DNA of 64,000 nt, taken from NCBI GenBank assembly GCA_977862235.1, contig OZ374565.1, positions 1,364,001 through 1,428,000 on the forward strand, read 5' to 3'. The position numbers and the translations under genes were made by a program. Below the pieces are notes generated by a model, which was not told the DNA's origin, ran no database searches, and worked only from the letters and a program-made list of their open reading frames with translations. The first letter of the stretch is position 1. Each line of letters begins with the position of its first letter. Of this stretch, positions 1 through 63,867 are shown in pieces. The stretch comes from Dudresnaya verticillata. Taxonomy: Eukaryota.

Positions 1-7
1 TAATCAA

Positions 8-607
8 GTGCTAGCCGTCGAGGGAGGCCACGGTGCCGCTACGGGAACGAGCACGGGGGTTACCTTTTCTACCCCGTACTCCTCGCCCCCGCAAAGCGTC
101 CACCCTACTCCGCCCAGGATGTCGCCCGCGCAAGGTTCCCCCTATGGTCGATCTCGCCCGGCGCCTGGCCCTCAACAGCAGCCGAGTCACCGTTACGGAA
201 ATAATTCCCACGATGGGCGAGGACAGCAGCAACCAGCACCTCCGCTACGGGATGAGTCGGATCCTCGGGTCCGACGCCTTTACGGAAGTGGCAACTGTCG
301 CATCTGCCTTTCGCCAGAGCACGTTGTTTGCCCATGGATACAGGACTCCGATCGGGTTAGGCTTATGGAAGAGCGCGAGCGCAACTTCCAGAAGCATTAC
401 CGTGTAGGCCGCAGGTTCGCAGTAGGCACCAGTTCGAATCCACAAGGGAATCGGGGCAAGCCGCATACGCCCCCTCCGCAACGGAATGCCCCGATACTAT
501 CGGTGGAGGACCATGACGGAGTGGAACTTGCAGAATTGCGCGAGCCCATGGAGGCGGATCCGACTGGTGCAACCTTGAATTCGGAAAACTCAAGGGGGGA
601 TGCGTAA
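8..607 (+). CDS. gag: Gag C-terminal part (Pro/Gln-rich, zinc-knuckle-like motif)
   Basis: CRICLSPEHVVCP resembles the Cx2Cx4Hx4C knuckles in the gags at 25949-27547 (CWFCREVGHIMYSCP) and 47130-47714 (CHQCYERGHIAPEC). It lies directly upstream of pol. Confidence 0.8.
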   Translation: MLAVEGGHGAATGTSTGVTFSTPYSSPPQSVHPTPPRMSPAQGSPYGRSRPAPGPQQQPSHRYGNNSHDGRGQQQPAPPLRDESDPRVRRLYGSGNCRICLSPEHVVCPWIQDSDRVRLMEERERNFQKHYRVGRRFAVGTSSNPQGNRGKPHTPPPQRNAPILSVEDHDGVELAELREPMEADPTGATLNSENSRGDA

Positions 608-640
608 GGGCGCCGCCATCCCCGCCTCACGGCGTTCCAC
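583..640 (+). promoter_or_regulatory. Putative -1 ribosomal frameshift signal (G GAA AAC plus downstream stem/pseudoknot)
   Basis: The pol frame is -1 relative to gag and open across the overlap. GGGGATG pairs with CATCCCC, and loop GGGCGCCG can pair with downstream CGGCGTTC using GU pairs. Confidence 0.6.
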
Positions 641-651
641 CTCTCGCGAGT

Positions 652-3600
652 GTGGACCCGCCAGGGGATCGGCGAAATACCGTTACGGAACTCCCATTGG
701 CTTATCAGACCAATGATACTATCTTCTTTATGCAACATCAAAATTACAAGATGCAAATTACCGTGGGACGGACAGATAGCGTGATGCTTCCTTTAATCTC
801 CGTCTTGGACTCTGGCGCTGGGCCCAATCTCATTAGTGCCAGGCGCCTTCCGCGCCAATGGCTCCCACTCATACGCCCAGCAGTCAGTCCGCCATTACGG
901 GATGCGTCTAATCGCGCTATACGCCCTCTTGGTCAGATCCAACTTTTCGTCCGTATCGGAGAGCTCCGTGCTCGCGTCCATTTTCTAGTGGTCGCGAACT
1001 TGGCGGCTCCCTGTATTTTGGGAACTACCTTCATCGACCGATACTTGAAGGCAATCCTCCCTCCGTTACGGAAAGTTGTTTTTCATCATTACCCACCGGT
1101 ATCCCTTGTTGGCCAAGCCAAAATTCCGGAGACGGGAACCACTGCAACCCTACAGCCCTCACCACTTTCTACCGCTACGGTTTCTCAGAAAACTCGTTTA
1201 GCCAAATCTACCCTTATTCCCCCTATGACTCAAACCACCGTAACGGTTAATACCCCCACGGGTGGGTTATGCTTTCTACAAAATCATCCTAAGCCGGCTT
1301 TTAAGCACCTTACGTTAATGGCTAATGGTATTATGGATGTTGTACCTAACAAACCGTTTCGGATCTGGGTCTCTAATTTTTCTAACAAGCCGGTACGGTT
1401 GCCCAAATCTACTGTCGTGGGCCTCGCTACTGCTGCCCCTTCTGCTATTTTTACCGTTGACGGTATACCTCCATTTAAGGAGGGGGGAGGAATTATTCAA
1501 TCATTTAATTCTAACCCTCCCTCCGAAAAGGCCAGCAGCATCTCCCCTCACGACAAGGAAGTAAGCAAACCCGTAACGGAAAATACAAATACTACCGACT
1601 GGAAGGATCAAGTCCAGATCGGCACAGAAGAAGCATCGCTCCGCAAACGGATTTTAACCCTACTCGAGGAATATAAGTCGATGTGGAGTGGCGATCTTGC
1701 CAACATTACAGCTGCCAAGCACCGCATCGAGTTAACTCCCGGAGCGAAGCCAGTATATCAAGCCCCATACCGTGCCGGACATAAGCAGCGAGATCTCGAA
1801 AAGACAGAGATCGATCGCATGCTTTCCGCTAAGGTAATTGAACCAGCCTCATCAGAGTGGGCCAGCCCCGTGGTTTTCGTTCCAAAAAAGGACGGCACCA
1901 TGCGGTTCTGTGTTGACTATAGAAGGCTCAATTCCGTAACGGTTAGGGACTCATATCCCTTGCCCAGGATGGATGAGTGCATAGATTCCCTTGGGGAAGC
2001 TACTGTATTTACCACCCTGGATTGCAATAGCGGATATTGGCAAGTCGAGATTCCGGAAGAGGAAAGGGACAAAACTACCTTCACTAGCCATTTTGGCTTA
2101 TACCGTTTTCGGAGAATGCCATTGGGATTGAAAAATGCACCGGCAACCTTCCAACGGGCAGTGGATATAATCCTGTCTACGGTTGAATGGCAATTTGCCC
2201 TCGTCTACCTAGACGATGCAATTGTCTACTCAAGAACCGTTACGGAACATTTCCACCACTTGAAGGAAGTCCTTACGCTTTTACGATCCGCTGGGGTAAC
2301 GTTGAAATTGTCAAAGCGTGACTTCTTCAACGCGTCTGTACAATACCTGGGGCATGTTATCCGTCCCGGAAAATTAGAAGTGGATAATCGGAATATCCAA
2401 TCCGTTAAGGTCGCGAAGCCGCCGACTAACCAAACGGAATTGCGATCCTTCTTGGGAATGTGCAACGTGTATCGTCGCTTTGTACCCAACTTCGCTCGGA
2501 TTTCAGCACCACTAAATAAGAAAACCGGCAAGGGCTCACCCTTTGAGTTTGGAATATTATCCGACACGGAATATGAAGCCTTCGAGGAACTGAAGAGACG
2601 CCTTATCTCTCCACCTATATTGGCTCTACCCCGTCACGGATATAAATATACGTTGGACACTGACGCATGTGACCACCAAGTCGGCTGTGTCCTTCTGCAG
2701 GAACAACCGAATGGCGATAACCTCCCTATTGGATATTGGAGCCGAAGCCTCACCGATGCGGAGAAAAATTATACGACAACCGAAAAGGAATGCTTAGCCG
2801 TGGTCTGGAGCATGTTAACACTCCGACCCTACCTTTACGGTGACAAGTTTATTCTCCGAACGGATCACGATGCCCTGCTGTGGATGCTGAACCTCGCAGA
2901 CTCATCTGGCCGCCTAGCCAGGTGGAGGCTTCGCCTATCGGAATTTGAATTTGAGGTGCAATACCGTCCTGGAATTAAGCATCAACTCGCCGATGGGATG
3001 TCGCGACTCCGAACGGATGGCGGTGACGATAGACCTTTGGATGAAGAGATACCCTGCTTTATCGCCGAAAATACCGTCGACGGATTATACGAGTATGGAG
3101 TCTATTTAACCGATTGGGCCACATCCCAAGAAACCGCTACGGAAAATAACGTAATATGCGCCGTGGATCCCGCCAGTGGGAGTGCATCCGCCTCCCCTGA
3201 CAAGCCCGACGCAATACCGTCACGGTTTACTGTAATCCAAGAATCCGACGTTAAGGATGAGACAATTACCAGGGAGGAGTTCCTTGAAGCGCAAGCCAGA
3301 GACCCTTCCTGCCGTCTCAAAGCCAATGCAGTAGGCTCCCCTGGATCCCAGTTTGACTATGACCGTAACGGATTCTTGGTACGCAAGTCCCAATTGGATG
3401 GTGCTCTGCAGAAGGTGGTGCCAAGCGAACTCCGTGGACGGGTAATGTATTTATCCCACTACACCCTGATGTCAGGTCACCCAGGCGGAATTAATATGTA
3501 TTATACACTCCGACAGGATTATTATTGGCCTCATATGGCCAACGATGTATTTGAATCCGTTCGGACATGTCGCTCCTGCGTGAAGACAAAGGGAACCCGC

Positions 3601-4908
3601 TTTCGGAATCAAAGGTTTATGAAACTTTTCCCCGCTAGCGGACCCTCGGAGTTTGTCGCTATCGACATTCTCGGGCCACTTCCGAAGACAAAACGGGGTT
3701 ATGTCTACGCCGATCGGTTCTCTAAGCTGACGCGCTATATCCTGTTACGGACAACAACAGCGGTTGTGGTGGCTAACGCCTTTCTGGACTTTTGGGTGTA
3801 CGCCTACGGCGCACCCCAATTTGTCCTAACCGATAACGGACCGCAGTTTACTGCTAAGTTCTTCGACGCGGTGTGTTCCTTACTCGGAGCCAGGCACCTG
3901 CTCACCGCTGCCTACCATCCGCAGACAAATGGGCAAGCTGAGCGATTTAATAAGACAATCGCCCAACGTTTGCGCCATTACGTCGAGGATCATGACTCCG
4001 ATTGGGATTTGTACCTGCAACCGTTGACATATGCGTACAACATGCAGGTACACCGTATCACGGAAACAACGCCATTTGATTTGGTGCTGACACGCCACCC
4101 ATCGGATATTGCTGTACGAGGGGCTCCTGTCGAGCATCAAGAAACCGTTACGGAAGGGCGTATGACCCCGGTGCTACAGAAGCGGAGCACCATGCGCCGT
4201 TTACGGTACGCGCTCCAGACAGCGCGCACGAAGCAGACAGTGGCTCAGCAAAAAGCCAAGGCACTGTTTGACCATAAGGTGCGCTTTAGGCCCATAATCC
4301 GAAGCGGAGATCAAGTCTATGTCGACCGGCCGCCTCATAACTTGCGGCCGGCCGAACGCCGTGCGCGGGACCGATTGGAAGGCAAACCGGACGATGTGGG
4401 CGAGGTGGCTCAGGAAATGAAGAAACTCCTTCCGAGAGCCACGGGGCCTTATGAAGTGGAATCCGCAACGGAACATGTCGTTACAATCCGCAAGGAAGGG
4501 GTATTGATCCCCGTAAGCATCGATCGCATCACGAAGGTTCCGATCGGAGTTGCGGTTCAGCCGGCACCCTTAACAGTGCCGCCTGTCACGCCATCAACCG
4601 TCTACGGAGAAGTAGTGCCACATCCGGAAGGTACTACAGTAGTACCTCCTTCTGAAGGTACTACTCCCTCCGCGACGGAACCACTGCAAGCCGATACGGA
4701 ATATGTGATCGACAAGATTGTCGGTCACCGCGACGAACCTACTTGGATGACGTACAAAGTCCGCTGGTATGGTTACCCTCCGGATCAGGATACCTACGAA
4801 CCCGCCGAGGAATTGCCGCAGAACTTCATCTACCGCTACTGGAAACAAAAACGAAACAGCTCCGCTAAGGGAAAGCCACTGCGACGCCCAGCCAAGGCAC
4901 GCCGCTAA
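652..4908 (+). CDS. pol: Pol polyprotein: aspartic protease, RT, RNase H, integrase, chromodomain
   Basis: VLDSGAGPNLI (protease); RFCVDYRRLN, MPLGLKNAP, YLDD (RT); LDTDAC...EKECLAV (RNase H); HPG..YYWP..CRSC, TDNGPQF, YHPQTNGQAERFN, GPY (integrase); YVIDKIVGHR..YKVRWYGY..DTYEP (chromodomain). About 4 aa appear missing before DRFSK relative to the other integrases here. Confidence 0.96.
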   Translation: MDPPGDRRNTVTELPLAYQTNDTIFFMQHQNYKMQITVGRTDSVMLPLISVLDSGAGPNLISARRLPRQWLPLIRPAVSPPLRDASNRAIRPLGQIQLFVRIGELRARVHFLVVANLAAPCILGTTFIDRYLKAILPPLRKVVFHHYPPVSLVGQAKIPETGTTATLQPSPLSTATVSQKTRLAKSTLIPPMTQTTVTVNTPTGGLCFLQNHPKPAFKHLTLMANGIMDVVPNKPFRIWVSNFSNKPVRLPKSTVVGLATAAPSAIFTVDGIPPFKEGGGIIQSFNSNPPSEKASSISPHDKEVSKPVTENTNTTDWKDQVQIGTEEASLRKRILTLLEEYKSMWSGDLANITAAKHRIELTPGAKPVYQAPYRAGHKQRDLEKTEIDRMLSAKVIEPASSEWASPVVFVPKKDGTMRFCVDYRRLNSVTVRDSYPLPRMDECIDSLGEATVFTTLDCNSGYWQVEIPEEERDKTTFTSHFGLYRFRRMPLGLKNAPATFQRAVDIILSTVEWQFALVYLDDAIVYSRTVTEHFHHLKEVLTLLRSAGVTLKLSKRDFFNASVQYLGHVIRPGKLEVDNRNIQSVKVAKPPTNQTELRSFLGMCNVYRRFVPNFARISAPLNKKTGKGSPFEFGILSDTEYEAFEELKRRLISPPILALPRHGYKYTLDTDACDHQVGCVLLQEQPNGDNLPIGYWSRSLTDAEKNYTTTEKECLAVVWSMLTLRPYLYGDKFILRTDHDALLWMLNLADSSGRLARWRLRLSEFEFEVQYRPGIKHQLADGMSRLRTDGGDDRPLDEEIPCFIAENTVDGLYEYGVYLTDWATSQETATENNVICAVDPASGSASASPDKPDAIPSRFTVIQESDVKDETITREEFLEAQARDPSCRLKANAVGSPGSQFDYDRNGFLVRKSQLDGALQKVVPSELRGRVMYLSHYTLMSGHPGGINMYYTLRQDYYWPHMANDVFESVRTCRSCVKTKGTRFRNQRFMKLFPASGPSEFVAIDILGPLPKTKRGYVYADRFSKLTRYILLRTTTAVVVANAFLDFWVYAYGAPQFVLTDNGPQFTAKFFDAVCSLLGARHLLTAAYHPQTNGQAERFNKTIAQRLRHYVEDHDSDWDLYLQPLTYAYNMQVHRITETTPFDLVLTRHPSDIAVRGAPVEHQETVTEGRMTPVLQKRSTMRRLRYALQTARTKQTVAQQKAKALFDHKVRFRPIIRSGDQVYVDRPPHNLRPAERRARDRLEGKPDDVGEVAQEMKKLLPRATGPYEVESATEHVVTIRKEGVLIPVSIDRITKVPIGVAVQPAPLTVPPVTPSTVYGEVVPHPEGTTVVPPSEGTTPSATEPLQADTEYVIDKIVGHRDEPTWMTYKVRWYGYPPDQDTYEPAEELPQNFIYRYWKQKRNSSAKGKPLRRPAKARR

Positions 4909-6178
4909 TCGTAACGGAAAACAAGCTACTGTCGCTTGCGGTAATCGCAACTCCCCGCGATGTGGCGACCCGGTTACGGGAACTGCTTCTTGTCGACGCC
5001 TGCTACCGTTACGGGATGTCGTTGCTGCTCAAACTGGGGCATACCGCTCCGTCACGGATTTTGCCAGCGTGGGTCGCGTACCCTGCTGATGACGCGACCC
5101 ATTTCCCGAAACTGTACTCTCGTTTTTCCACAATATCGCAGCCGGCGTACTTTGCCCAGGTTCCACCGCTTACGGGGCACTCTTCCGTCACGGAAATCGC
5201 TCTGAACACCCCGTCAGCCACCGTAACGGTGTTCGTCGTCGACCTTTCCGGGAGGGGCACGCCTTTTTCTTGCGATGGGCGGCCGCCCCAGCACGTTTGG
5301 GCCAAGAACGGCCCCTTCCGCGACGGTACAGGAAAAATCCTCGGTCTCATTATTCTTCTCAGAGTCCCGGGGAATATATTAATATTGATGTTAATATTAA
5401 TATTTTCAATATATTATTATATATTAATATTATATTAACACCGTCGCGGGTTGGGTTCATCTCAAGAGGAAGAGGTTCGTGGTGTGTCTCATAAGGGCAG
5501 GAGTGAAGGTATTCGCAAGTAACCGCTACGGATTCCTGAAACACGCCGCCTGCGACGGTTTGTGGCGTATCTAGCCCCCAACTTCTCGCCACCCGAGTCG
5601 GAACAACTTCCGTCAGGAGGTAGCGGGTGTGAAGTACCGTCATCCGATCGGAGTACGAATTGTGCATTGCGGATATGGGAGCGTAATCGACTGCGCGTTC
5701 GAGCAGACCGTTGGGGAAACTTATTCCGCTACGGTGAGATCAACACTCTCCAAGAGTGTTTGCTCCTTTATGTGTGGTAGGACCCCCATGTCGGATTTTT
5801 GCAAATACGGCTATCTGTGAGGTGTCTGGATTGCACTCCCGTTACGGTGAAAGAGGGGTAAGATCTGGCGTCTGCTCCGCTGACACACTGGAGGAACCCG
5901 TTGCGGATGTTTTATGAGGCCGAAGACTGGCGACCAGCCTGGGCAAGTAATCCTTGCGGATGGCGCGCGACACTCGCGTCAAGCGCGATTTGGTTATTAT
6001 CCGTGACGGAAGTCCTGGTCTTGGAGGTGCGTGGGGTTTCCCCACGCATCGAAGCAAACCTTGGCGGCAGTAGAGCAGTTGACGAAGGACCTGGAAAAGC
6101 TGCTCTAATCCGTTGACCGTGCATCGGACCCAAGTCGCAACTCCATCAAGGTGGGCGCACGAGGACGTGGCGCCATTT

Positions 6179-6191
6179 AAGGAGGGGGGTC
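6179..6191 (+). other. Polypurine tract of element A
   Basis: AAGGAGGGGGGTC directly before TGTGGTG, the same pattern as the PPT at 56360-56371. Confidence 0.75.
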
Positions 6192-6847
6192 TGTGGTGAA
6201 GTGAAATTCGGCATCCGAAACGGTGGAAATGCATATAGTGTGGCCTGAACCATTGTGGGATTTGTGCACGTGTATCCGTGTCGGCTTTGGGTGCATTGTT
6301 GTGTGATGGCGTACATTGTTGTGCAGCAGTGGAGCGCACCAACCGCAGCGGAGTATTTGTAGTGTTTATTCTTTATTCTTAGTGAGTATCTGTACAGTAT
6401 GTAGAGTAGTGTGCCAGCCAATGAGAATGCTGTGCATGTCCGTGTCGGAGATTGGGACCAGCAGGGCCGATTCCACCATGGGTCCAGACCACTAGGGTCT
6501 GGCCCCCACGGACCGGACCGCTCGGTGCCACCCTGACTTGTATATCAGGGCGGCACCGCAGCGGCTCCTAAGGTAAACGGGTAAGCAACCTTAGCCCAAT
6601 CCTTTACAGTTTTCCCCGCGCCGAGCCCGTTGCGGTCTACCACCACCACCGTTACGGAGTCCGTCCCGGCACTTGTACCACCCCCTTGTCTGTTGCTTCC
6701 CAATATACGTCTCGGTTAGCCGCTCGCTGTTCTCCCGCCTCGGTGCGAACTGCTCTACCACCCCGTGGAGGTAGTGTTGCTCTCGTCCGTTAAGGAAAGT
6801 CAGGCCAGCTGTCCGTCTCGGAGTTCGTGGGTTTTCACTACACCACA
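6192..6847 (+). repeat. 3' LTR of element A (~656 bp)
   Basis: Begins TGTGGTG and ends CACCACA (7-bp inverted termini). The element-specific CCG-N3-CGG words stop at ~6821. The partner LTR is outside the window. Confidence 0.7.
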
Positions 6848-6852
6848 ACCCC

Positions 6853-7010
6853 AAAAAAAGGAAGAGAAAAAGAAAAAGGAAACAGACCTATAAAAACACA
6901 TACACACGTGCAAAAAACAGTAACAAAAAGGGGCTAAGAAAAAGATGTAAAGAAAAGGGGAATTACAAGAAAAACAGAAAAAGAAAAAGGAATCCAGTAG
7001 CAAATTAAAA
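6853..7010. repeat. A-rich low-complexity tract
   Basis: Runs such as AAAAAAAGGAAGAGAAAAAGAAAAAGG. Confidence 0.75.
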
Positions 7011-7353
7011 TAGGATACCATGGTTACTTTGGCAGCTGTAAGGGGGACACTAAACGCTTACATTCCCAGCACCCCGTTACAACAGGATATCAAGACAGTG
7101 TGGCCACAGGCAGCAATATCTGTACACGTATTAGCGGACCCTCAGGCACCCGATGCGAGTATAATCGCGATTACACGGCCGAGCCGTACCGCCGTCAGAA
7201 GTACTATCAAGGGCAAATTTTGTTACATTTCTACTGTCTCTAGGAGCGAACGGTCCTGTTGACCATCGCTTGTAGAGGTGTCAAATCACGCCCCAACTGG
7301 GCCTAACAATCAGTGCTGTAACACAGTACGTACTGCACAACTGCATTGTCACT

Positions 7354-7419
7354 GTAAGAAAAAGGGACAATTGATAATTTAAATTATCAGCAAGTCTAAC
7401 CTTTCGTAATTTCCTGCAG
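7354..7419 (+). other. Candidate short spliceosomal intron (66 nt) preceding an Arg/Ser-rich open frame
   Basis: GTAAGA donor, CTAAC branch-like site and TTTCCTGCAG acceptor, AT-rich relative to the flanks. The downstream frame reads ARLKRAANDPEVIRERLRRERE. Confidence 0.4.
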
Positions 7420-9312
7420 TGGCACGTCTCAAGCGCGCCGCCAACGATCCGGAGGTCATTCGCGAGCGCTTACGGCGCGAACGGGAGGCCCGCCGCCGCC
7501 GCCGCTCGGGCGAAGCGTCCACTGCGGCCGCCTCCGATTCATCAAGCGAATCCGCCGCCGCGCACCCCCTCATCGAATCAGAAGCGAAAGGGTCAGATAT
7601 TTCTGACAGTCCAGCAGTGTGTCCCTCTCGCCGATTTCGCCGCCCCGCCCAAGCCGCCACCTGCCACGCTCTCAACCCCCATTGGGCCACTTCGCCGCTG
7701 ACAGTATTAGGCGCACCGCCTAATTGTAGTATCTCTAGAGCACCACCGCGTACGGCAGCCAAACGAGACCCCAAGAAGACGACAAAGACCTGTTGGATTT
7801 CACCAAAAACTGGCCAGAACGTAGAACGGACCTGCGCGTCGGTAGCAAGCGTGGTAGAGCGGGAGCGCGCAGACGAAGTCGTGGCCAGAATCTGTGATGA
7901 GGACAGAAAATGGCCAAGTCGGGGGTTCAGTTGCTAACTTTACTCCCAACCTCTGGCGGGACGGCTTCGTACCTTTTTTCGGCTAAACCGTAGCATGTGG
8001 CCAGCTAGGTAGTCTCAAAATCGGCCATCTGAGCTAATCTAGAGCTATTCTACAGTTAGTGGCCGAGGTTACTCCGGTCGGCCATAATATCTACTTGTGT
8101 TCCGGCGTCGGGCCAATGTAAGGCCCTTGCGAGACTAAACCAAGTACTTGTGCGTTAACGGTTGGCTCTGCGAGTTAGATTTTCCCTTGATTTTTCCACT
8201 GTCTTCCCTTTGATTCACCGTGCGGCCAAATCCAATTCCAATTTGTGTCTGGCCGCAAAATCGGACCATGCGTGTACAGCGGGCCACGTGGTGCGCTTCG
8301 GTGTCGTAGGTGGCCACGTGTGATCCACGTGTACAATCGGTGGCCACGTTTCATACTTGCGCGCGCTCACCGCCGTCCGCGCGGCGACGTCACGACTTCA
8401 TTGGCCAAGTGTCCTCGTTTGGTTGGGCCGATCGTACAGTTGGCCCGTCGAGTTGCTTCCTTTCGGTGGCCCCCTTGCCGTTGCACCACAGAGCCCCCTT
8501 CGCAAACGCGGACTCCTGGCCGCGAGGGTTTCATCTGGCCATATCTATGGCCAGATGAAACCCGCGTTATCCACGCCGCTACCCCTCTCCCTGCACCCGG
8601 CCACGGACGGCCGAGGGTAACGCCGTTGGCAGTTGGCTTTCGCGGTTTGACCGGTCGGGCGTCCCTTGCGCCCTTTGACTTGGCGACTTCGGCCTAGCCG
8701 GTGAACAACCGGCACTGCCGTGGGGAGTGGGGCAACATGCCCCGTGTGTCAATGGTTCGTCAACGACGTTGCGCTCCGCGGAGTGCCCTTGGTCGTCGTT
8801 GACGCGGTTGGTTGGTTGATCCGGAAGCTCCGGTTGTCCCTCGACGATGTCGGCTTGTGTTCCGTCTACGACGTCCTGTTGCTCGGCTTGTACTGTATCA
8901 GCCGAGTCAACATAGGAGCGGTAGGTGCGGAGGGCCGATCCCTCGGGGACTGAGGTGCGGACGACGACGGGGTTGTGGCGCGTCGGCGGGGGAGGTAACT
9001 CTCCTCCGTTGAGCGACGCGTGGGAGCCTGCGTGGCCGTGGCCCGGGGGTAGCGTCGGGAACGCCGACGCTATCTGGGGCTCACGAGGCGCCCAGACCTC
9101 GTTCTCATCCGCTGTAGCGACCGTTCTGACGCGGGTACACTCCCAGGCGTCGGAGACGGTCTTCTTGAACTTGGGCCTCGCGACGGCGGCGGTAGTGAGG
9201 CCATGATATAATCGTAGAGTTGCTTGAACGTCGTGGACGATTAGCGACAAACGTCTGAAGACGGAGGGTCGGACGTCGCACGACGGAGTAACTCGTTGAA
9301 ACGTAGCACAAT

Positions 9313-9330
9313 TTCTAGGTCGGGAGACCA
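9313..9330 (-). promoter_or_regulatory. Primer-binding site, complementary to a tRNA-Tyr-type 3' end
   Basis: Minus strand TGGTCTCCCGACCTAGAA, 2 nt from the LTR. Confidence 0.85.
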
Positions 9331-9332
9331 GA

Positions 9333-10241
9333 TGTGGTGCAAACGTCTGAGACGATAGACCGCCGAGCAGTTCGGGGCTCGGTGGGTAGCTGCGCCCTCG
9401 GCGATGGGTGGTCCCGCCGTGGGCGACTTGTTGGTAGAGCAAAGGAACACGCCTTGGGCGGACTGTAAACGCCCGAGGCGGAAAGTGTGAAGGAAGGGAA
9501 AAGGAAACAGAAAGGGAACACGTCAAGGACGATGGTAGACGTGGAAGCACGGGAGGTAGACGCTTAGCCGTAGCCAGCGGTAGGGTACGCGCGTGCGGAA
9601 CGGGGAAGTCTGGACCAAGGCCGGCTTGCCCGGGCGTTTACTGTTACGTCTGGGACGGCTTACCTAAGTATAGTACGGCGATGCGGCGGCGGCGGTGCGT
9701 ATGCGTAGCGCGGGAACTCGGGACACGTGTCGTCCCGAGGTGCGCCTGACAGATCACCCATCGCATGCAGCCGCGCGCTTGACAGATTGCTGTACAACCC
9801 CCTGTGTGGGTGCTTACACGCACACGTGGACGCGTGTGCCTTACAGCCGTGCGCGCGCGCATACTGTAGAGCGTGCGCCTTGGATCTAATCCGATACTTG
9901 TCCGATCCCGATCCTATCCGGATCTGGCCAGCAATGCGAATACCCGCAGCCTTACAGGCGCAGATATTACAGCTTAGGCGATCCGGATAGCCAATCTGGA
10001 TACCGGATCCGGATCCCATCTGGATCCGTATTACAGTGTCCCGGGGCGCCACGTCGGCCCATCACCGTACAGTGCCCGCGTGGCGCGCGGCGCGCAGTGT
10101 GCGCGCGCGCCCCAGTGAGCCGTCGATGACGTGTTCGCGCGCCAACGGCGGTGGTGAGCGCCGGTGGCGGTTTCTCCGTCGGTCGACGTATTTGGTCTGC
10201 CCGCTTTCAGCGAAAAAGGGCTCACCTCCCCTTGCACCACA
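9333..10241 (-). repeat. LTR (909 bp)
   Basis: TGTGGTGCAA...TTGCACCACA, perfect 10-bp inverted termini, adjacent to the PBS. Confidence 0.88.
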
Positions 10242-11793: not shown

Positions 11794-11921
11794 AACGCCT
11801 CTTTCACCCTCCTAGTTGGTTTTGGCCGGTTTAACGTAGCTTCAAGTGAAAATGGACTCGGGGGCCGACTGAGAACCAAGTCAAACGGCGTGGTTCCAGT
11901 GGAGCGATGTATATGGAAATT

Positions 11922-45000: not shown

Positions 45001-45018
45001 TGGTCTCCCGGCCTAGAA
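45001..45018 (+). promoter_or_regulatory. Primer-binding site (tRNA-Tyr type)
   Basis: TGGTCTCCCGGCCTAGAA, one transition relative to the other three PBS copies. Confidence 0.88.
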
Positions 45019-45039
45019 GCTGCTACGTTGCTACGAACG

Positions 45040-52413: not shown

Positions 52414-53707
52414 GACGCCCCAACCGATCACGAAAGGACTTGCGTCCTAGAACGCCAAGGGCGGAAGCACGCCCAGAGCGGATCCTCATACGTACGCCCT
52501 ACAACGGGACAGTCAGTCAAGACGGCCCGAATCGCTGGCGCCACATAACCTCCAGGCGCTGGCCCCGGGTGACAGCGCACGCGGAAGGGGGGAATTACGA
52601 AAACAACACGAAAAGCAAAAATAATATTAATAATTACTCGCCGTAGGCGTCTCGCAAACCGCCAAGTGTCGTTACGAACGGACGGAGGGAAGTCCCCCTA
52701 CCACTATTTGCGAGGACGGGACGTTGGCCCCCTCGAACGAATAACCGCGTGACTCATGTCGCCCGCCACCGTCGACGTCCCCGCGACCTCGCGCCGCCGT
52801 CCGCAAGGGCACACTACTAAGGTACAGAGAGGGGAGAAGGAAACGGAACTGCTACGCTAAGGGGAACGACGCGAGACCGCGAGGCCGGATGGGGCGGGGA
52901 CGTCGCAGACGGGAATAACAACTTACGTGCACGACGCGTCGAGTGGCAAACGACCCCCCTCACTGGGAGTGGCCCTCCCGCGCCGAGAGTGTAGCGGCCA
53001 CACCATAATAACGTCGAAGACGAGTACTTGAGTTCAAGCGTCAAAGACGAACCAACTCTGGGGATCGGCTCCGCTGGCAATACGCGGAGCGCGACCAACG
53101 GGGACGAAGGAGCTATAGTTGCTGCCCGAAGCGTCAAGGACGAGTCAGGGCAATCCTGTAATGACGTCGGACGACGCCAGCTACGCAATATACACTGGCG
53201 TGGGGCGGCAGAGTCGCTGCAGCGCCGACGGCGGTCACTCCCCATGAACGTCAATGACGACGCACACGGAAGCGATTACGCCGGAGTAAGGTGGCGGGAG
53301 TAAGATGGCGCGCGACGCATTCATTTGCGGTCGCCTGCACCGACAATCACGCCAAGAGCGGTTTACGACAATAATGCACGCGGGTCCCATGGCTACCAAT
53401 GAAGCGGCTACGGAGAACTACCACGCAAGATTACGGCAAGGCCGACACGAAGCCCCTTCCCGCTCGCCAAGACGTTAGGGACGACTAAGACGCACACGCC
53501 ACGCGGGTGCCATTTGGCGTTACGTCTCGGACGATCAAGCAGGCCCCCGACCGCAAAAACAAGTTCCGGCGGGGGGAGCGCAGCCACAGTGGGTCAGTAA
53601 GGCAAACAAGGAAGTAACGGAGATGTCTAATACGCACATGCCTTAGACGACATCGCCCCTACTACCTCGCTAACTTTAGGGCTACGATAACGTGGCCATA
53701 TCCGTCT

Positions 53708-55981
53708 CTAGACGCCGGTCTTTCCCCCGCCCGAGCCGCTTCGCACGGAAGACTCGGACTCAGCCACTCTCGCGACCGCCAAGCGAGTCGTCAAAGACGA
53801 GAGGTTAGGGGACACCCTCCGTCGCCTTCGGCGTACTAGGGGCCTCCGCATCCTCGCCCTCGGCGGACTCACGAAGTGCCGCCTCGTAGCCATCATCATC
53901 CGTCGGAGACGAAGGAGCGGGACCAAGTGAAGCGGCGGCGGGCCGCGAGGCATCACCGGGCACAGCAACCACTTGGGTCACAAGATCTTCCGGCGCCTTC
54001 TGCGAAACATCAGACTCTTTAGTCGCCTCGGGCGTGGGGACAACCGTCGTCCGCCAGCTTCGGCGACCGCGAAGTCTTTTCCGCCACCGGCGTCGAGCGC
54101 AATGCAATCGCCTTAGGCGTTAACAGGGCATCTTTTCCCTTCGCCTCAGGCGTCTTCGGAATGTTAACCGCCTTCGGCGCAGGTTGGGAAGTGATCGCCT
54201 TAGGCGCTCCGGGGACTTCCGCCGTCGATGACGTTGGGACAACTTTGCTCGCCACAGGCGCTTCGCCACTGGAAGGCATCGTCGTAGACGAAGTCCCCAC
54301 AGCGCTCCCGCCACTAGGCCCCGTAACCGGCAGAGCCATTGACCCCCGCACAGGGGTTGCCGTCGAGGTTGGAACCGTCGCCAAGACGCGAGCCCACCAA
54401 TCCGAGGGCGAGCCGCTCGCTTCGCTAGGCTCGACGCCTGCGGCCCGCAGGAGCGAAAGGACCACATCACGCTGCGCGGAGTTCGAAGTCGGCACAGCCG
54501 AAGATACTGCAACACCGTCCTGGACGCTTGGAACCGATGGCGACGCCACTGCCACGACCGCTGGTGTCTGCACCCGGGAAGCCATGACAGCGTCACCATC
54601 ATCGTCAGCGACGGCTGCGTTCCCATCGTTGGGAGCAACCGCCACTGGCGTATGAGACGGCCCAGCCGCAGTTGCCACATCCGACGCCAGAGGCGATTCT
54701 ACAGCAGAAGCTGATGGCTCAACCGCCATAGGCGTCGCGAAGCCGGCCCAGACGTGTGCACCCCGGCGCTGGTAGCGTGAAAGGCGTCCTCCTCGGCTGT
54801 CAACATGGCCAAGTCAGGAGGGAAATCTCCGACAAAGTCGCACGATGGCAGTAGCCCACGAGGGTGGCCCGTTCAGTCACAAACCGGTCAGTACGTCGAT
54901 GACGTTCAGCACTGCTTTCCGTCGTTCGACGTTTGGTCCAAGGATTGTACCAGGCCCAGTCGCCACAGGCGTGGTAGTTGCGGCATATCGCGAAACGCGG
55001 ACGACGCGCCTTCCGGCGGCTGTTTTCCAGAGGGACGACCACGGGGTTATCCCAGTCGATCTCGCTCGCCACTTGGCGTAAGTACCAGAACTCGCGGAGG
55101 TTCCGCTGACCGTCGAGCGTCTCGGTAAGGTCCAAATCGTTGAAAAATGCTACGATACGCGGTGGGAGGTAGTACATCCGAAAGGTATCGTACACCTCCC
55201 ACAACCACGCATAAGCGATGTTGGCCACCCACTCCGTCTGAAAGACGATCCACCACCGCGAATACGCGTTCACTACGAGCTCCGAGCCCACGTAAGTGAC
55301 GCACGGGGGTAACGCGGCAGCGAAGCTCTCGCACACTTCCATCTCACGCCACTGTGGCGGTAACTTGACGAAACATTTCGACACTTTTGTACGCTCTAAG
55401 AGGTCAATCTGTGTATCCTGATACGGCACTAGCACGCCCTTGCGGCACCGGGACTCGCACTCCCAGCGAATGCACCTCTCCCAGTAGAATATGCCTGCTC
55501 GGTGGGAATACCGAAACTCCGCTCGCAAGCGCACACCCATCACCAACACATCGTCTCTGAAGCGAGCGTCCAACGACGGATTGATGTGCGTCAACGGCAG
55601 TTCTGCCAGACGATAACCATAACCGGCCTCGCCGTGTGTTCGGAAAAACGCCGCATCCAACCCCAGCGACAACGGGACCAAGTCGGTCCCCGGGAAGCGG
55701 CCATATACGTCGATGACGAAGCGGGCGTACGCGTCTGCCCGCGACTGGCCCGGGTGCGTATGCAACCACTCTTTCGGGACCGCGCAACGCGTCCGCCACT
55801 CCGTCGAATAGACGACAGCCAAGGGGCGTTCCCCCGGCAACATATCGCCAATGGCGTAATGCGCAATCTGCGCTTCGTTTCCCAACGCGGCCGGGTCAAA
55901 CCACGGCGCCCTCGCAAAGAGGCGCGCGTGGTCACGCGGACTCTTTCCGACAAAGTCGTGCAGTGACGGGTATACCGGCAT
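53708..55981 (-). pseudogene. Antisense accessory gene of element D (393-aa globular ORF plus frameshifted Ala/Pro/Ser tail)
   Basis: ORFs 54800-55981 and 54019-54729 lie between pol and the PPT, inside the LTR pair. Homologous to 41424-43799. Confidence 0.75.
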
Positions 55982-56371
55982 CGATGAAGGGGGCGCAATC
56001 TGCGCCCCATCGTACTATGGCATAACGTCAACGACGGAAACTTACGAATACGTCACTGACGATCGGGAATTCGCCGTCCCACCGAACAACGTCGTCGACT
56101 AGGAGATACCGCACGCGCCTTGGACGAGGATCGCCGAACATCAACGACGAAGGCAAACGGCCGCTTGGCAACACTGTCACACACGCCTCGTGCGGAGAAT
56201 TGACGTCGGTCGCTAACACGCTGAAAGCGGAACGACCGCTTCGGGCGAGGATGACTGCTCGCACACACGGCAACGCCGAGCAAAAGCACACGCCACAAGC
56301 GGAGTCGCAGCTGATGGAGGTTGCGCGGTACGACTCAGTCGATGGATGTGTTCGCGTCTAAGCGGGGGTCG

Positions 56372-57205
56372 TGTGGCGCACGGGGGACCGAGCTTTTGTT
56401 TCCTCGCCATGGGCGTCAAGGGCTTCGTCGACCGACGGACGTTCACCTGGAACAGCTCTTTCGCCATTGGCGCGAACAAGTCATCGACGATTGGCCTACG
56501 GACGTGCGGGTGCCACAAACCCGCACCGCGCAGGCCGATACACTGTACGGCACAACGCTGTAGAGCGGATCTGGATGACACATCGGGATCAACGAAGTGT
56601 AAGCGGGTTGACTGGCAATTTGGCCCGGATCCCGATCGAATCCGGATCCCACATCCGGATCGGACATCGGGATCCGCTGTAAGGGCAACGCGCCTGTAAT
56701 ACGGTGCCGATCGCGACCCGAATCCAGATCGCCTACAGTGCCGTACAGGCGCGCCTCGGTCAGACGCATGCGTCGACGTACAGTGGCTGCATTGTCCCGG
56801 GACCTGTCAGACGCACCTCCATACGACACGTGTCCCGGGTTCCCGCGCACTACATTATGCAGCCGCCGCGCCGCGGCCCCATGCCATTATTTAGGTACCT
56901 CGTCTAGGACGTAGCGGTAAAGCCCCGGCAAGCCGGTTTGAGTCTAGACTTCCCTTCCGCGACGGCGCGGACCCTGCCGCTTCCCGGAAGCATAAACGTC
57001 TACCTCTGCGTGCTTCCACGTTCGTAACTGTTGCTAACGTGTTTTCCTTTGGGTTTCTTTGTCCCTTTTCTTTTCCGCCTCGGGCGTTTACAGTCCGCCC
57101 TAGGCGTGTTTAACCTGCTCTACCAAGTTCGCCATCAGCGGCTACCCACCGGGCCCCCGAACGGCCCGGAGGTGTTCTCCGTCAGTAGACGACGTTTTCA
57201 CGACA
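56372..57205 (+). repeat. 3' LTR of element D
   Basis: TGTGGCG...CACGACA, preceded by PPT AAGCGGGGGTCG (56360-56371). Confidence 0.95.
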
Positions 57206-57860
57206 ACAGCGGCTGAGTGGCGAAGGAGGAGGAAGAAGGAAGCCGACGGGCGCAGCGCAGTTGGGCGTGTTGAAGGCGGGGAGCTGATGCGGGCTTGTGG
57301 TATAACGAAGTCCACGGAGACGTGGGGAAGTCTCGAACTGTAAGGAATGGCCTCGGAGCCTAACGAATGGCCTTGTAGCCTAACGGAGAAACGAAAAGGG
57401 GTGGTAGCGTGGTAGAGCGGAGCGACCAACACGAAGGACCACGGTGTCAACGTATTCGTGTGCGGAAGGGAGAACTCGAGCGATCGATCACCGGGGATGA
57501 CTCCGTGTGCGCGGGGCTATCGAAAGCGAGGCTCGACCGTATCCGCGGTCACGAAGACGAAGACACCGAACTCGAAGAAAGAAGCGTTTACCGAAGACTC
57601 CGAGGTCCGGGCGCTAGTCGCTTACCGGAAACCCTCGGAGGTTGTGCCAGACGACTGGCTAGGTAGTACTACGTGAGCACGAATGCGCGTCAACTCGGGA
57701 GACGGTTCGTACTCGAATGATTCGTAACGGCCTCGGTGCCAGCGAACGGTCGCCTCACGTATGGTGGCGGTTGCGAAGTGCGCCAGCGATGCATACGGAG
57801 GGGCGCGTATCTCGTGGGCCCCGGTGCCGTTACGCACGGGAAACAACGGGAAAGTCACGA

Positions 57861-58062
57861 AGGTGTCAGCGATTTCGTATCGGGTGCGCACTGTAATGCG
57901 AATGCCATCGTGGCGCGCGCGATCACGAAGTCGGCTCGGGATTCGTCCGGAGGTGTCAGCGATTTCGTATCACGTGCGTGCTGTAATGCGTATGCCGTCG
58001 TGGCGCGCGCACCGTATGCATCGCTGTAATACGTTTGCCATCGTGGCGTGCGCAATCACGGA
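57861..58062. repeat. ~90-bp tandem repeat (2 copies plus a partial third)
   Basis: AGGTGTCAGCGATTTCGTATC...CTGTAATGCG.ATGCC.TCGTGGCGCGCGC at 57861 and 57951; partial copy at ~58024. Confidence 0.85.
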
Positions 58063-58857
58063 GTTATTTCGATATTCGTATTTCTCGGTTATTTTCGCGT
58101 AGGCCACGGAGTCGTTTCACGGATAGCGTATATACCATAGGGCTGTCGACGCCGAGACGCGAGAAGGCGTAATCGGGTCGCAACCCTCTGCTTGTATAGC
58201 CGCGCAGCGGCGCCAAAATTGGCTCATGTAAACTCGTGAGCCGCAACGCTCGCGAGCCGTCGACGCCCGAGACGTCGCGACGGGCACGCCTGAACACTGA
58301 GGGGCTGGCCCGCGATGCCACGCATGTAACCAGGGCCCACACGGCCGCTGGCCCGACTTGATCCCCGACAGGGCGTGATACACAGACAGCCGTTGGGAGC
58401 TCAACCACTAACCTAGCAGATTTAATATTCGGAAACCGCCAGTCATAGCCTCGCCGGCTGCTTCGATCTTCAGAAGGGGGCTATGAGGCAGTATGGAAGC
58501 AGTCAGCGGGACGGCTTACAGGAGCGTAATTCTTTTCGCGGGACAGACTGTCCCTTAATCAGGACAGCTGTCCTTTCCTCGCTGTACACGTCGGTGGCGC
58601 GTGGAATACACGTGTGTATATGTGGCCTTACAGCTGTACACGTGGCCTACAGGTGGCATTGTAATGACGCCAGTTGGACAAGTCGTATTGGCTGATTTAT
58701 GACGCGCCGCTGCGCTCCTACTCACGAACGAGGATCGCCTCTGCGCTCAGGGTATCGACAATGCAGCCGAGACGCTGGCCTGGACACCGGTGCATTCGCC
58801 CCCAAGTCCCCTATCTGGAACGCATTCCCACTTTTACTTTGTACTGGCTGTACGAAC

Positions 58858-59362
58858 TGTAAGGAAGTGCCTTTTAGGTCTCTTGTGAACTCAAAGAGTG
58901 CACTCAATGAGAAAGCCACAGAGCGGGTACCTGGTAGCGGTGGTAGAGCGGGAGGAACCCAGAGGGTAGACGAGGGCACGTAACCGGATTGGAAGCACGA
59001 TACTGAAGGTAGTTCACTGGGCGGGCGGTTGACCGGGCACGGGTGACAAGTGTGCTGCGGTGCCGATAGCTTGGAGACGTAGTTGGGGCCGGAAGGTGCT
59101 TACCTTTACTGTGCAGTAGTTGCCACAATGGTGCACCTTATATGGAAAAAGGCTACCGTCTGGTCCCCTGACACCGCTTCTGAGGACTGTGTACAAGGCC
59201 CGCCTACACTACTAATAAATAATCATAAAATAACACTGGATGTGTCCCGAAATGGACCACTTGTCAGTTACCTGGAGGGTCACTTCAAATCTCGATCTCA
59301 GGCGCTATTCATCATCCTGGAATAGTTCCACGCCGCTTCTGCAAGCCTTTCACTGTATTACA
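58858..59362 (-). repeat. 3' LTR of element E
   Basis: TGTAAGG...TATTACA; no difference from 63363-63867 spotted. Confidence 0.96.
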
Positions 59363-62300
59363 GAACCCCCGTCCAAGTTTGCGACACGTCCTCGTGTCGC
59401 CCCGGCGTGGGACGTAGAGAAATGTCACCGAATGGTTTGCAGCAGCTCTGTGACAAGATCTGAGTTTCACCAATTAGAACGTGCCAAGTCATTTGGAAAC
59501 ACCCAATGAGCGTTTGACAATTGGCACGCATATTTGTGCTCCCACGGCCAATCGCAGAACCTGTGTGATGCCACGTGTACGTCACCGAAATGGTACTCCT
59601 CAACCCGGTGCCATGAAGAAACGCCTCCATCTGGTCAAGTCCTGTGCGGTCTTTTGCCCCCACCAGCCCAGAACTGCTCTCGTTATCGAAAATACCCTTC
59701 GTGGTTTCCAAAATGGTTTACCCTTTCGGCGGGAGGACGAGGCTACGCGCTGGACTGCGACGAGAACCAGGAAGGTTACCAATGTGGGTTAACGTCCAAC
59801 GAAGACCGCACACCGCCCGGGGCTCACGCGTTTGCGAGACTTTGCGTTTCGGCGAAGGTTTCCGTCGTGCCCACCACCGTGGTTTCAGCCCCAATGGGAA
59901 CCTCCGGAGCTTGGGAAGTCTCTCAGGTGTATCCCAAGCTCAGAGAGGTGGACCTCAGGGGTTTTCGCTTACGCGTTCGCGAACCTTGGAGGTTCCCCAG
60001 CGTACGCGTCCTGAACGGTCCAGCGCCTTGCCGAATACCATTTTGGTGACCCAACGTCACCGTCCAAGCGGAGGCTTACCATACTGAAAACCATCGTGGT
60101 TAACGGGAAACGTCTTCCAGAACGGTAATGACTTCAATAGTTACCATAAGCGGTTATCGAGACCCGTCCAATGTGGGGCCCCAAATCTCACTTGAGGACA
60201 GTAACCATTTGGTCCATGGACAACCGTCTCGGTTAGCGAAGTCCTTTGGCCACGATGGTAGCGCACATGCGTACGTGAATACGTCACAGTACCACCTAGG
60301 GAAGATTTTCGGGTTACGACGAATACGAGAGCGTGGAGAAGCGTAACCTTCGCAGTTATCATCAGCAAAAACCATTTAGGTTTATGACTTCGCGATTCCT
60401 TCCCACATACAGGGACGACTCTGAAAGGATACCGACATAGGTTTGCCGCAATGGGGTAACTCAATCGCGTACACCCAGAAGCAGTTCCCAATTGAGAATG
60501 GGTCTCCAGAGCGGTACACATGAGTCCATCAAGGTAAACCACGTGCGTTTTCTTCCCAAAGGGGTTATCTCCAGAAGAAACCAGAACGGCGGCCACTGAA
60601 AGAGCATCACTCCTTCCCAACCGAATTCGGTGATTCCTGAAGAGGCATTCCAAAAAGGTGACTCCTGCAGTCAACTGTCCTCGTGAACGCCGTATGGAAC
60701 CCGTTAAGCAAGGTGTTCCCAATGGAGGACTGCCACAGACGGGACCGGGGTCCGGACCAAACGGTCCATCGCAAAGGTTGTCGATACCAATTCGGTAACT
60801 ACCTTCGAGCAGTGGCACCTGGGTTCAACACCACCAGTAAGGTACCCATATGGGTTCAGCCCTTGAAAACCTAGGTTAAGAGCTCTTAGGGGTGAGAGAA
60901 ATATCAGGAACCGTTTCGGTAAATGTGAAATCACTCAGCATACACACCTTATTCAGTTACCCATGATGAAACTTCTTCGACGAACCCAAAGCGGCTAATA
61001 AATACCAATCTTGGTCCCCAATATCATCATATCCAAACTTCCATCGTTGGCAACCTATTCTTGAGGTAACTTGATCAGCTTTTCTTTTCAGATTCCAGTT
61101 TCCATTTCAGCAATCATCTATCCACTTGAACGGCTCTTCTCCTTCAGCAATCTTATAACTGACAACAGAATCCATAAAGGTGCTACTCGAGCATACTTCA
61201 ATAGTGACCATTGTCTACTTCGTTTGATAGCCCGGATAGCGATCCATAAACGCAGTGTCTGTCTGGTGTAACCTCAACGGTACGGTACGGAACAAGAACG
61301 CCACGAAAGTTACACCCCCTGTGGATCCTGGTTATGGCGACTATATAAGCCGTGACCAGTATCCAAAACTTCGTAAGTAGAAGCCAAAGTGGGTACTTGC
61401 CGGAACAGCATGAAAAGGCTCCGGAAATATGCCTCTTACGAAATAACTTGAACGGAAACCCTTGACAGGTACGTCACTTCCTTGTCAGTTTCCATCCAGG
61501 TATATACAAAACATCCATCTGAGAATTAACTCAACGAGTACAAGGGGACTTATACCAATTGTGGCTCAATCCCAATCGGTTCTCTTTGCGCGGTAGATGG
61601 CATGGGCGTGCGGCTTTACACCCCTTTACGTACTCCATCGTGTTTCCTTTCAGGTAACCAGGTTTGTACAAATAGTCGGATCTCGAATCACGCAACTCAG
61701 GGGAGTAAGTGCGAAGATTGAAGACTTCGTAATATGGACGTAGCATAGAACCTTCTCGGTGGATCCAGTTCTGGTAACGATGGGTCACGTCCAAACGCTC
61801 TGCTGCGTTACTCCCATCAATAATGGCGACCTTTAAGGTAGGCCACTCCTGGTAGGTCCCAACAAAAGTTGAGGCCCAACCAATTACCGGTTCCCAATGG
61901 CCTGAATGGAGGCGTCCTAAACATTCCCAAGGGAACCAAGGACAGTGGACGAAAAACTCTTCTAAGAAAACTCCTGGTTAACAATCTCGATTAGTATCAA
62001 CACACGGGGAGATCGAAAAGACCTGTTGGTTGCTTATCGGAGAAATTCCTCATGGGTAATTGCGACACTGAAAACACAGTTGGAATCAATATTTCCCAAT
62101 GTGATAGCTTTTCATAACGCAACCCCTAGGGTGAGCACGTCGTTGAGGAGTCCATCCCTCTTCGACTTCTCATTTGATACCAACAGACGGTTATCGCCAT
62201 TGTTGGTAGATCTGGTCGAACTGAAAGTCCCATCTTCTCAAGAACCTTGGACCACGGTCACAAGGAAACTCCAAACGAGTATCTATCTTCTATCTCCTAC

Positions 62301-63342
62301 TAGGTGTCCTTCTCCTCTACCACATGGTTATCTTGGACAGTTTCTTCAAAACCTCTTTTCCAATATCCTTACTCTTCTACTCCTTGAGTAACTTGGATAG
62401 TTCCGACATTTCTCTCTCTAGTGCCCTTCTTCTCCAACCAAAAACGTTTCTTGGGCTTAATTAATCATTCGAGTTCCTACTGAACAGGATCACTTCTCGA
62501 GTTTCCATTCTTTCGGAACCATAAATGGTTGACCGCATGGGCCACTGTGTCACTAGCTCTTACTACCTTCGGAGCTTCCGCAACACTCCTCCACTAATCC
62601 CGTGATACCCGCAAGTATCTTGCGCAACGCGCACATTTATCACCATCGGGGGGGTTGGTCGAACGATGCCAGGAGGGTCTGCATCGTCCGCCTGAATGTT
62701 TGTCTTTGGTTACCAATACAAGTGTGACTTTGAAAGGTTGTCCCCTCTGGGTTCAGACTCGGCTTAGGATCTTCACCTGTCGGGGTAGGAAGTTCTCGTC
62801 TAGCATACCAAACTTTCGGATCATTTGACCTCTTTGGAAACCTCCCTTGAGTCCAGCCCTTTAGGTTATACCTTTCGGTAACACGATAATGCCCCTTCTC
62901 TCTCATTCAATGACGAAAGAACTCCTCAAACCTTCCTAGAGATAGTTTCATGTCGGGAGATACCAGGTGATCAAACTGGAGAACCTCTTTAGGTGAAACA
63001 GACTTATTCAAACGAAGGGAATCATTGAGGGGTCTTACTTTCTGTTCTTCTCTCTTGTACCGAAAAGGGTTACCATTCTGGGTTAAGGACAAAACAGCAA
63101 CTCCAAGAGGTGAACCGGACTTGGACACACCAGCTCGTGAAAATTCCTTTGAGATGACTCCACGGACAGGAAGACCAGAACAGGTATTTCCAATTGGGTA
63201 CTCCAACAATGAGTCAACATGGAGCCAAGTAAAGGAACCAAAGACAGGTTGATTTATACGATGCCCGTCAGGTGACAATAGTCTGGCAGGGTTCATAAGC
63301 TCACTAACCATGAAGGTAACTGAATAAGATGTCCTCCAGCAC

Positions 63343-63360
63343 TTCTAGGTCGGGAGACCA
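63343..63360 (-). promoter_or_regulatory. Primer-binding site (tRNA-Tyr type)
   Basis: TGGTCTCCCGACCTAGAA, identical to 9313-9330 and 28416-28433. Confidence 0.9.
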
Positions 63361-63362
63361 GA

Positions 63363-63867
63363 TGTAAGGAAGTGCCTTTTAGGTCTCTTGTGAACTCAAA
63401 GAGTGCACTCAATGAGAAAGCCACAGAGCGGGTACCTGGTAGCGGTGGTAGAGCGGGAGGAACCCAGAGGGTAGACGAGGGCACGTAACCGGATTGGAAG
63501 CACGATACTGAAGGTAGTTCACTGGGCGGGCGGTTGACCGGGCACGGGTGACAAGTGTGCTGCGGTGCCGATAGCTTGGAGACGTAGTTGGGGCCGGAAG
63601 GTGCTTACCTTTACTGTGCAGTAGTTGCCACAATGGTGCACCTTATATGGAAAAAGGCTACCGTCTGGTCCCCTGACACCGCTTCTGAGGACTGTGTACA
63701 AGGCCCGCCTACACTACTAATAAATAATCATAAAATAACACTGGATGTGTCCCGAAATGGACCACTTGTCAGTTACCTGGAGGGTCACTTCAAATCTCGA
63801 TCTCAGGCGCTATTCATCATCCTGGAATAGTTCCACGCCGCTTCTGCAAGCCTTTCACTGTATTACA
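63363..63867 (-). repeat. 5' LTR of element E
   Basis: Direct repeat of 58858-59362. Confidence 0.96.

Follow-up and report, generated by a model that had tools for sequence, protein, structure and literature searches.

Family-specific palindromic and mini-hairpin motifs dispersed through nested Gypsy elements of the red alga Dudresnaya verticillata

The 64,000-nucleotide stretch of Dudresnaya verticillata DNA analyzed here (assembly GCA_977862235.1, contig OZ374565.1, positions 1,364,001 to 1,428,000; called the window below) is made up of a nest of Gypsy elements, and five long terminal repeat (LTR) elements in it, A to E, each carry a short symmetric motif of their own, or barcode, dispersed along the element. 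The barcodes are real, statistically overwhelming and replicated in independent elements, and they range from word to hairpin. Regarding function, we infer that they are probably a selected, family-specific cis signal with an element-encoded putative reader, if all readings of this kind are taken jointly. The particular version that we put forward, with somewhat less than even confidence, is that a dispersed dyad signal owned by each family is kept by selection and read on the DNA of the element by its own particle protein (Gag nucleocapsid or integrase), enabling self-recognition among relatives.

Observed counts were compared with the mean of 100 dinucleotide shuffles. Element A holds 49 copies of CCG-N3-CGG (3.2 in shuffles), B 34 copies of YGGCCR in its right part (2.8) and 18 in its left part (2.6), C 122 copies of TCGA (45.0) and E 21 copies of ACC-N5-GGT (1.5). 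These are the words with which the original prediction had described the four elements as saturated; the description holds for A, B and E and has to be recast for C, as shown below. Element D has a fifth motif, CGYC-N3-GRCG, which had gone unnoticed before (67 copies against 3.9). A scan for gapped palindromes with half-sites of 2-4 nt and gaps of 0-11 (about 4000 tests) returned -log10P values of 15-35 in the five elements and at most 4.3 in three other regions. Compared with shuffles of synonymous codons, 22 sites were observed against 2.6 in the pol frame of A (maximum 8 in 300 shuffles) and 11 against 4.2 in the integrase of B (maximum 9), so that the signal exceeds dinucleotide shuffles and, wherever there is a reading frame, codon shuffles as well, in C mainly as a hairpin rather than as TCGA. 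The motifs are found in LTRs, gag, pol and non-coding DNA. The words were also said to lie inside homologous pol sequence, which is the case in A to D; E contains no pol.

The cross-table of motif by element is nearly diagonal. CCG-N3-CGG occurs 49 times in A and 0 times in B, where YGGCCR occurs 52 times; the D pattern CG-X-C[NNN]G-X'-CG is found 80 times in D, 18 times in a D-like fragment and once in B; AGCG-loop hairpins number 32 in C and 0 in D, and RYCGA-loop hairpins 30 and 3. Two entries depart from this pattern: ACC-N5-GGW, counted together with its reverse complement, reaches 39 in E, yet 35 in A, whose motif overlaps, and YGGCCR reaches 29 in C against 18.6 expected. Because the D-like fragment, which interrupts B 35 kb away from D, bears the motif of D while YGGCCR drops to background there, the motif follows the family rather than the position. 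This fragment, together with the codon shuffles survived in A and B, bears out the earlier argument that regional bias or protein constraint is insufficient. Barcodes are absent from 7.5 kb and 11.3 kb of non-LTR sequence and from neighbouring families. Chance, base composition, codon usage and region effects are thus ruled out by the shuffles, the palindrome scan and the cross-table. Tandem amplification was rejected as a source of the sites, since none of the 12 short TRF rows of the window is a barcode array.

In several elements the symmetric arms are free in sequence and nevertheless paired. The third arm base of D is free, and the two arms are complementary at this position in 75/87 sites against 27.5 expected, with all four combinations occurring; the D-like fragment gives 18/20, the two tests in C 35/38 (16.1 expected) and 33/38, and the fetched loci L086, L087 and L083 (see below) 49/66, 52/75 and 43/67. 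Against permuted marginals P was 0.0002 in each of these cases. E co-varies at one position (32/45, 15.4 expected). Because free arm positions co-vary as complements, pointing to base pairing, a plain-word model misfits C, D and E. The idea that the barcodes are family-specific cis sites for a dimeric DNA-binding protein therefore stands in part: the sites are dispersed, conserved and family-specific, but a plain duplex word suits only B and, largely, A.

Element C illustrates the hairpin end of this range. Of its 137 AGCG/CGCT words, 39 sit between the arms of a perfect stem of at least 3 bp (background about 2%), a second loop type, RYCGA, has TCGA as its core, and both loop types occur in both orientations. 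Against synonymous-codon shuffles the hairpins number 13 versus 0.95 in the PR-RT-RH frame, 8 versus 0.23 in the integrase and 6 versus 0.31 in gag. TCGA alone, under the same shuffles, is not enriched in the PR-RT-RH frame (26 versus 21.4, maximum 30), borderline in the integrase (10 versus 6.0, maximum 11) and enriched in gag (20 versus 12.3, maximum 18). Within a stem of at least 3 bp, allowing four registers, TCGA is found in 61/113 cases in C, 8/85 in D, and 5/43 and 1/30 in gaps. As a stand-alone word of C, TCGA is thus largely rejected; in C it is mostly a hairpin loop.

The stems have a sharp limit. Over eight loop sets, 138/186 stems of 3 bp extend to 4 bp and 39/138 of these to 5 bp, which is close to the chance level of about 0.26, and the next outer pair in D is complementary in just 5/62 sites against 17.5 expected. 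Stems in C, D and unrelated loci are variable in sequence, perfectly paired and stop at 4 bp. Because the geometry is fixed at 11-13 nt with free but paired arms, the sites may represent the footprint of a protein on a folded strand. The predicted folds of C and D as single-stranded DNA have a median free energy of -3.4 to -4.4 kcal/mol at 37 °C. No Rfam match was obtained.

Loops lie in the sense orientation 80 times and in the antisense orientation 66 times (P=0.28; about 2 antisense cases expected by chance), and G-T pairs are not favoured over A-C pairs on the sense strand. The only G-T bias among 15 loop sets, 8 versus 0 in the AGCG loops of C, follows the loop-reading strand in both orientations. 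DNA rather than RNA is therefore indicated as the target, as both orientations are used without a sense G-U bias. These data bear on the possibility that the sites are dispersed packaging signals, i.e. stem-loops through which Gag would bind the genomic RNA, in the manner of single-stranded RNA viruses. The sites do spread across the whole transcript, their predicted RNA stability in D and C has a median of -4.4 to -5.6 kcal/mol, the non-coding element E retains a sense-biased motif, and fixed loops on free stems fit the pattern of such signals as far as the available part of PMC6281560 describes them for MS2 and other viruses, namely many small stem-loops with a common recognition motif running through coding sequence. 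The viral signals act on one packaged RNA strand, unlike the barcodes, which are about equal in both orientations and show no sense G-U preference. Antisense sites exclude packaging as the sole role in C and in L086/L087, and we consider packaging very unlikely as the explanation of the barcodes.

For comparison, 159 related loci were fetched. A first scan of 80 metagenome loci with fixed words gave weak signals, and the hairpin signal emerged once the stems were left free. Among pol open reading frames (ORFs) long enough for testing, an excess of 4-bp hairpins over codon shuffles (z of at least 3) was found in 39/71 in-clade ORFs (at least 50% identity to the RT-RNaseH of A) and in 9/55 outgroup ORFs (below 47%), the 71 including three ORFs of the window, with A itself at z 2.2, and near-duplicate contigs. 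Other families use other loops: TGAA in L087 (23/97), AGCAA in L083 (13/45), CAAG in L059 (21/108), AAGTG in L069 (11/30) and GCGAA in L091 (8/19). Stem-loops with a shared loop are present in C, the host element of D, L083, L086, L087, L059 and L069 and not in B. In a quick RT tree of 113 rows, in which the D branch is long, hairpin excess and loop types cluster by clade, and some clades have none. A GC-rich clade (L001, L012, L033, L058 and relatives) has no hairpin excess, although many members carry the accessory ORF described below, and shows a weak shared CC-N4-GG word instead. The contigs L082-L092, L090 and L143 come from bacterial genome bins and are eukaryotic Gypsy elements of the in-clade type, which means that the bins contain contaminating host DNA.

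A hairpin- or palindrome-binding factor of the host, acting in transcription, repair or protection, might read the sites, with families drifting among host specificities. Such a reader would account for the lack of an element gene that tracks the barcodes and for the AGCG loop that two unrelated elements, C and the host element of D, have in common. However, the different loops and words number a dozen or more, several of them within one window or contig set; they follow RT clades, and the non-LTR regions are free of barcodes. A host reader is thus highly improbable in our view.

The history of individual sites was followed in pairs of related elements. D shares 67% identity with the D-like fragment, where perfect arms are retained at 8/10 of the D sites within the alignment; in 6 of these the loop is altered, and in 1 a pair has changed in a compensatory way. 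Across a 12-locus clade, the arms of triloop hairpins diverge by 0.086 compared with 0.12-0.14 in mirror, complement and long-spacer controls, the pairs not being independent. Ten more pairs gave a weaker effect, with arms usually below the overall divergence and the complement control sometimes equally low, and the pair L069/L072 showed no arm conservation. Single changes complete hairpins 1324 times against about 1000. Clustered substitutions (triples) complete them 28 times against 23-31 of 283 in hairpin-rich clades and 106 times against 103-124 of 1265 over 239 pairs, i.e. without excess, which rules out template switching as the main source of sites. Protein columns that contain sites are less conserved (0.51-0.52 versus 0.61-0.65). 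In the Pol of A the peptide trace of the motif appears 10 times against 1.6, but an amino-acid cost of the sites was rejected, as rare residues are not significantly in excess at sites once column conservation is taken into account (P=0.67, 0.10 and 0.37).

These observations also weigh on the view that the barcodes are a functionless footprint of mutation or repair, in which either fold-back copying by RT or the modification-directed repair that has been modelled for HIP1 would create symmetric arms flanking trigger sequences. Templated copying would produce freely varying arms with strict Watson-Crick pairing in both orientations, and the placement of sites in less conserved columns, with no significant excess of rare residues, agrees with such a footprint. 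On the other hand, it is single and not clustered changes that outperform the controls in completing hairpins, arms have changed less than loops and controls, a copying tract would not be expected to end so sharply at 4 bp, and no methyltransferase lies inside any element, the N6/N4-methyltransferase-like ORF at 15893-17365 being outside them. A footprint without function is decidedly unlikely; stepwise gain followed by purifying selection fits better than a copying ratchet, for loci that are not independent. HIP1 and the alternate HIPs of cyanobacteria resemble the barcodes in being lineage-specific palindromes that are overrepresented in coding DNA and replaced between lineages; according to the portion of PMC4390886 at hand they are genome-wide fixed words with a cognate methyltransferase, unlike the barcodes, which are limited to individual element families and whose stems are free and co-vary.

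A candidate for an element-encoded reader is the antisense accessory gene between pol and the 3' LTR of D. A second such ORF lies in the host element of D, and relatives occur at the same place in many loci (42 ORF matches in the window and the fetched loci, among them L028, L029, L059, L065, L082 and L086); viral contigs yielded no relative of the protein and one distant pol. The family has 1396 representatives at E<=0.001, is very diverse and rich in conserved Arg, and its members in Gracilariopsis chorda are annotated as hypothetical proteins (1 named cluster of 20 looked up), which points to a red alga as the likely host. A first structural model from 4 sequences was poor (predicted local distance difference test, pLDDT, of 42), and the final predicted structure is mostly helical with a pLDDT of 89.4 and a predicted template-modelling score of 0.88. 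It had no fold match in Foldseek searches of the PDB, in BFVD or in the wide VIA search (best Z 2.4, root-mean-square deviation 6.0, 139 aligned), no match was found in PDB sequences or the Atlas, and neither the ORF of D nor 12 other members matched a Pfam family, TRP28 included. Such absent matches do not prove a new fold. In its position the gene is like the TRP28 ORFs of Retand (Tat) elements, plant Gypsy elements that, in the available part of PMC11963269, carry an antisense ORF between pol and the 3' LTR; it differs in the lacking TRP28 match, and tandem arrays are absent here.

The accessory protein, acting in trans where it is absent, is the natural candidate if recognition takes place in chromosomal DNA, through a VANC-like regulator that lifts silencing or drives transcription. 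Both orientations suit duplex DNA, B and A resemble classical dimer sites, and sites are denser outside pol (in A 15.3/kb in the LTR versus 5.2/kb in pol); the family is very diverse and rich in conserved Arg, and its position matches that of the Retand ORF, for which DNA binding is predicted in the same partial account. A search of A, B, C and E, however, did not detect the ORF. In a set of 28 in-clade loci, which are not independent and extend 2.5 kb or more beyond pol, hairpin excess is seen in 8/14 with the ORF and 6/14 without it (Fisher P=0.71), and the gene is rejected as a universal cause of barcodes. Complementary arms of free sequence are, moreover, hard to read in B-form DNA. We regard a VANC-like regulator as rather unlikely. 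VANC/VANDAL of Arabidopsis shares with the barcodes dense, short, family-specific motifs that differ between related families; the VANC21 motif YAGTATTAY, as the accessible text of PMC5735166 presents it, is non-palindromic, mainly non-coding, of single orientation, tandem-multiplied and belongs to a DNA transposon, unlike the barcodes, which are dyads or hairpins of LTR retrotransposons, in both orientations, inside pol and without tandem repeats. Going by these partly available sources, the barcodes work like VANC motifs or packaging signals, yet fail a defining test of each, and they are not genome-wide like HIP1.

Several points weigh against a single signal read as a folded DNA strand. 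One hairpin-reading mechanism fails to cover all five elements: B shows no arm pairing (27/52, 29.5 expected) and behaves as a plain word with independent half-sites, and in A the inner and outer pairs do not co-vary (21/49 and 17/49, expected 21.6 and 17.7), so that A pairs solely through its fixed arms. Several in-clade groups have no hairpin excess, 32/71 pol ORFs being under z=3. The flank of E is sense-biased, with ACC-N5-GGA found 15 times and its reverse complement twice. Sites in B are evenly spaced (coefficient of variation 0.67, P=0.006 uncorrected), which is seen in B alone among 8 site sets, spacing being random elsewhere. Loops were selected after the data had been inspected, and many loci are near-duplicates. 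Finally, a cruciform of 4 bp should not extrude unaided from duplex DNA.

A particle protein reading complementary DNA (cDNA) is favoured among the readers on two grounds: the signal tracks the RT clade, and it peaks in C, whose coding content is gag and pol only. As C is complete, has no accessory ORF and gives the strongest loop signal, one would expect either a core protein as the reader or a reader supplied in trans. In the mechanism that we propose, the sites would fold into hairpins and be read on DNA, as minus-strand cDNA, displaced plus strand or a protein-extruded hairpin, and not on sense RNA alone. The putative reader would be element-encoded and change its specificity between families, with sites regained by point mutation after each change; the benefit would be cis-preference in reverse transcription or integration, and the non-coding E may use the reader of a helper. 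A bolder form of this proposal, which we advance tentatively, is that red-algal Gypsy elements possess a self/non-self code of DNA mini-hairpins, with dozens of 4-bp stem-loops per family, distinct in loop or stem type, on both strands of the whole element, pol included, and a reader of possibly new fold that senses shape and a few bases and shifts its specificity as families split.

The features of the window are collected in Table 1. A, C and D show the PR-RT-RNaseH-IN order, LTRs bounded by TG..CA, primer-binding site (PBS), polypurine tract and target-site duplication (TSD) of Ty3/Gypsy elements. The primer-binding core TGGTCTCCCG is common to the D-like fragment, C, D and E (positions 9321, 28424, 45001 and 63351). 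The LTR pairs differ by 12 substitutions in 774 positions in C and by 30 substitutions in D, whose TSD suggests that it inserted within another element. E, 5 kb in size, has LTRs identical across 505 bp, no ORF, pol or codon periodicity, and no similarity to any of the fetched loci; it is a recently mobile non-autonomous element. The methyltransferase-like gene lies between LTR elements in a barcode-free region and is broken by an in-frame stop at 17365; one relative was found, and this has a clear PF01555 match.

Table 1. Features of the window.
Feature	Position	Strand	Remarks
Element A, chromodomain Gypsy	1..6845	+	5' end beyond window; intact PR-RT-RH-IN-chromodomain frame; pol ORF 517-4908; 3' LTR 6191-6845; CCG-(Y)N(R)-CGG, 49 sites
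Element B, left part	6846..8559	-	YGGCCR x18; assigned to B by position and common YGGCCR only, without homology evidence
Near-perfect palindrome, 44 bp	8523-8566		two TGGCCA copies; at junction of D-like fragment and left part of B
D-like 5' fragment inside B	8560..10241	-	LTR 9333-10241; PBS 9321-9330; leader; interrupts B
Element B, right part	10242..13000	-	truncated Gypsy, integrase region; YGGCCR x34
N6/N4 DNA methyltransferase-like gene	15893-17950	+	DPPY motif; PF01555 E=1e-4, below cutoff
Element C, complete Gypsy	20480..29208	-	LTRs 20480-21253 and 28435-29208; TSD GGTTC
Cytochrome P450-like fragment	29893-30540	+	weak, E=0.003; probably decayed host gene piece
DUF7869 ORF	33306-35456	-	E=2e-38; probably part of a DNA transposon; region without barcode
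Host element of D, left part	40580..44163	not assigned	G-closed AGCG-loop hairpins; contains second accessory ORF
Second accessory ORF	41424-43892	-	in host element of D; about 25% identical to that of D
Element D, complete chromodomain Gypsy	44164..57205	+	LTRs 44164-44998 and 56372-57205; TSD ACAGT/ACAGC
Antisense accessory gene of D	54019..56014	-	between pol and 3' LTR; conserved domain 54800-56014
Host element of D, right part	57206..58857	not assigned	inferred from TSD of D; AGC-loop hairpins x3
Element E, non-coding LTR element	58858..63867	-	LTRs 58858-59362 and 63363-63867; ACC-N5-GGW x39

Literature searches, with thin coverage of subscription papers, returned no published description of such a signal. 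If the tentative mini-hairpin proposal is true, the barcodes would be a structure-based, evolvable recognition code without described precedent in LTR elements. The accessory proteins are of separate interest as a large, confidently modelled family without a known match. The barcodes bear on the question of how an LTR retrotransposon prefers its own copies in a cell where hundreds of related families have similar enzymes and use the same primer tRNA; C, D, the D-like fragment and E have a common primer-binding site but not a common barcode. A countable family-specific signal makes cis-preference, the choice of helper by non-autonomous elements and the divergence of families directly testable, and proteins that read 11-13-nt DNA hairpins with evolvable specificity would, if they exist, be a potential tool.

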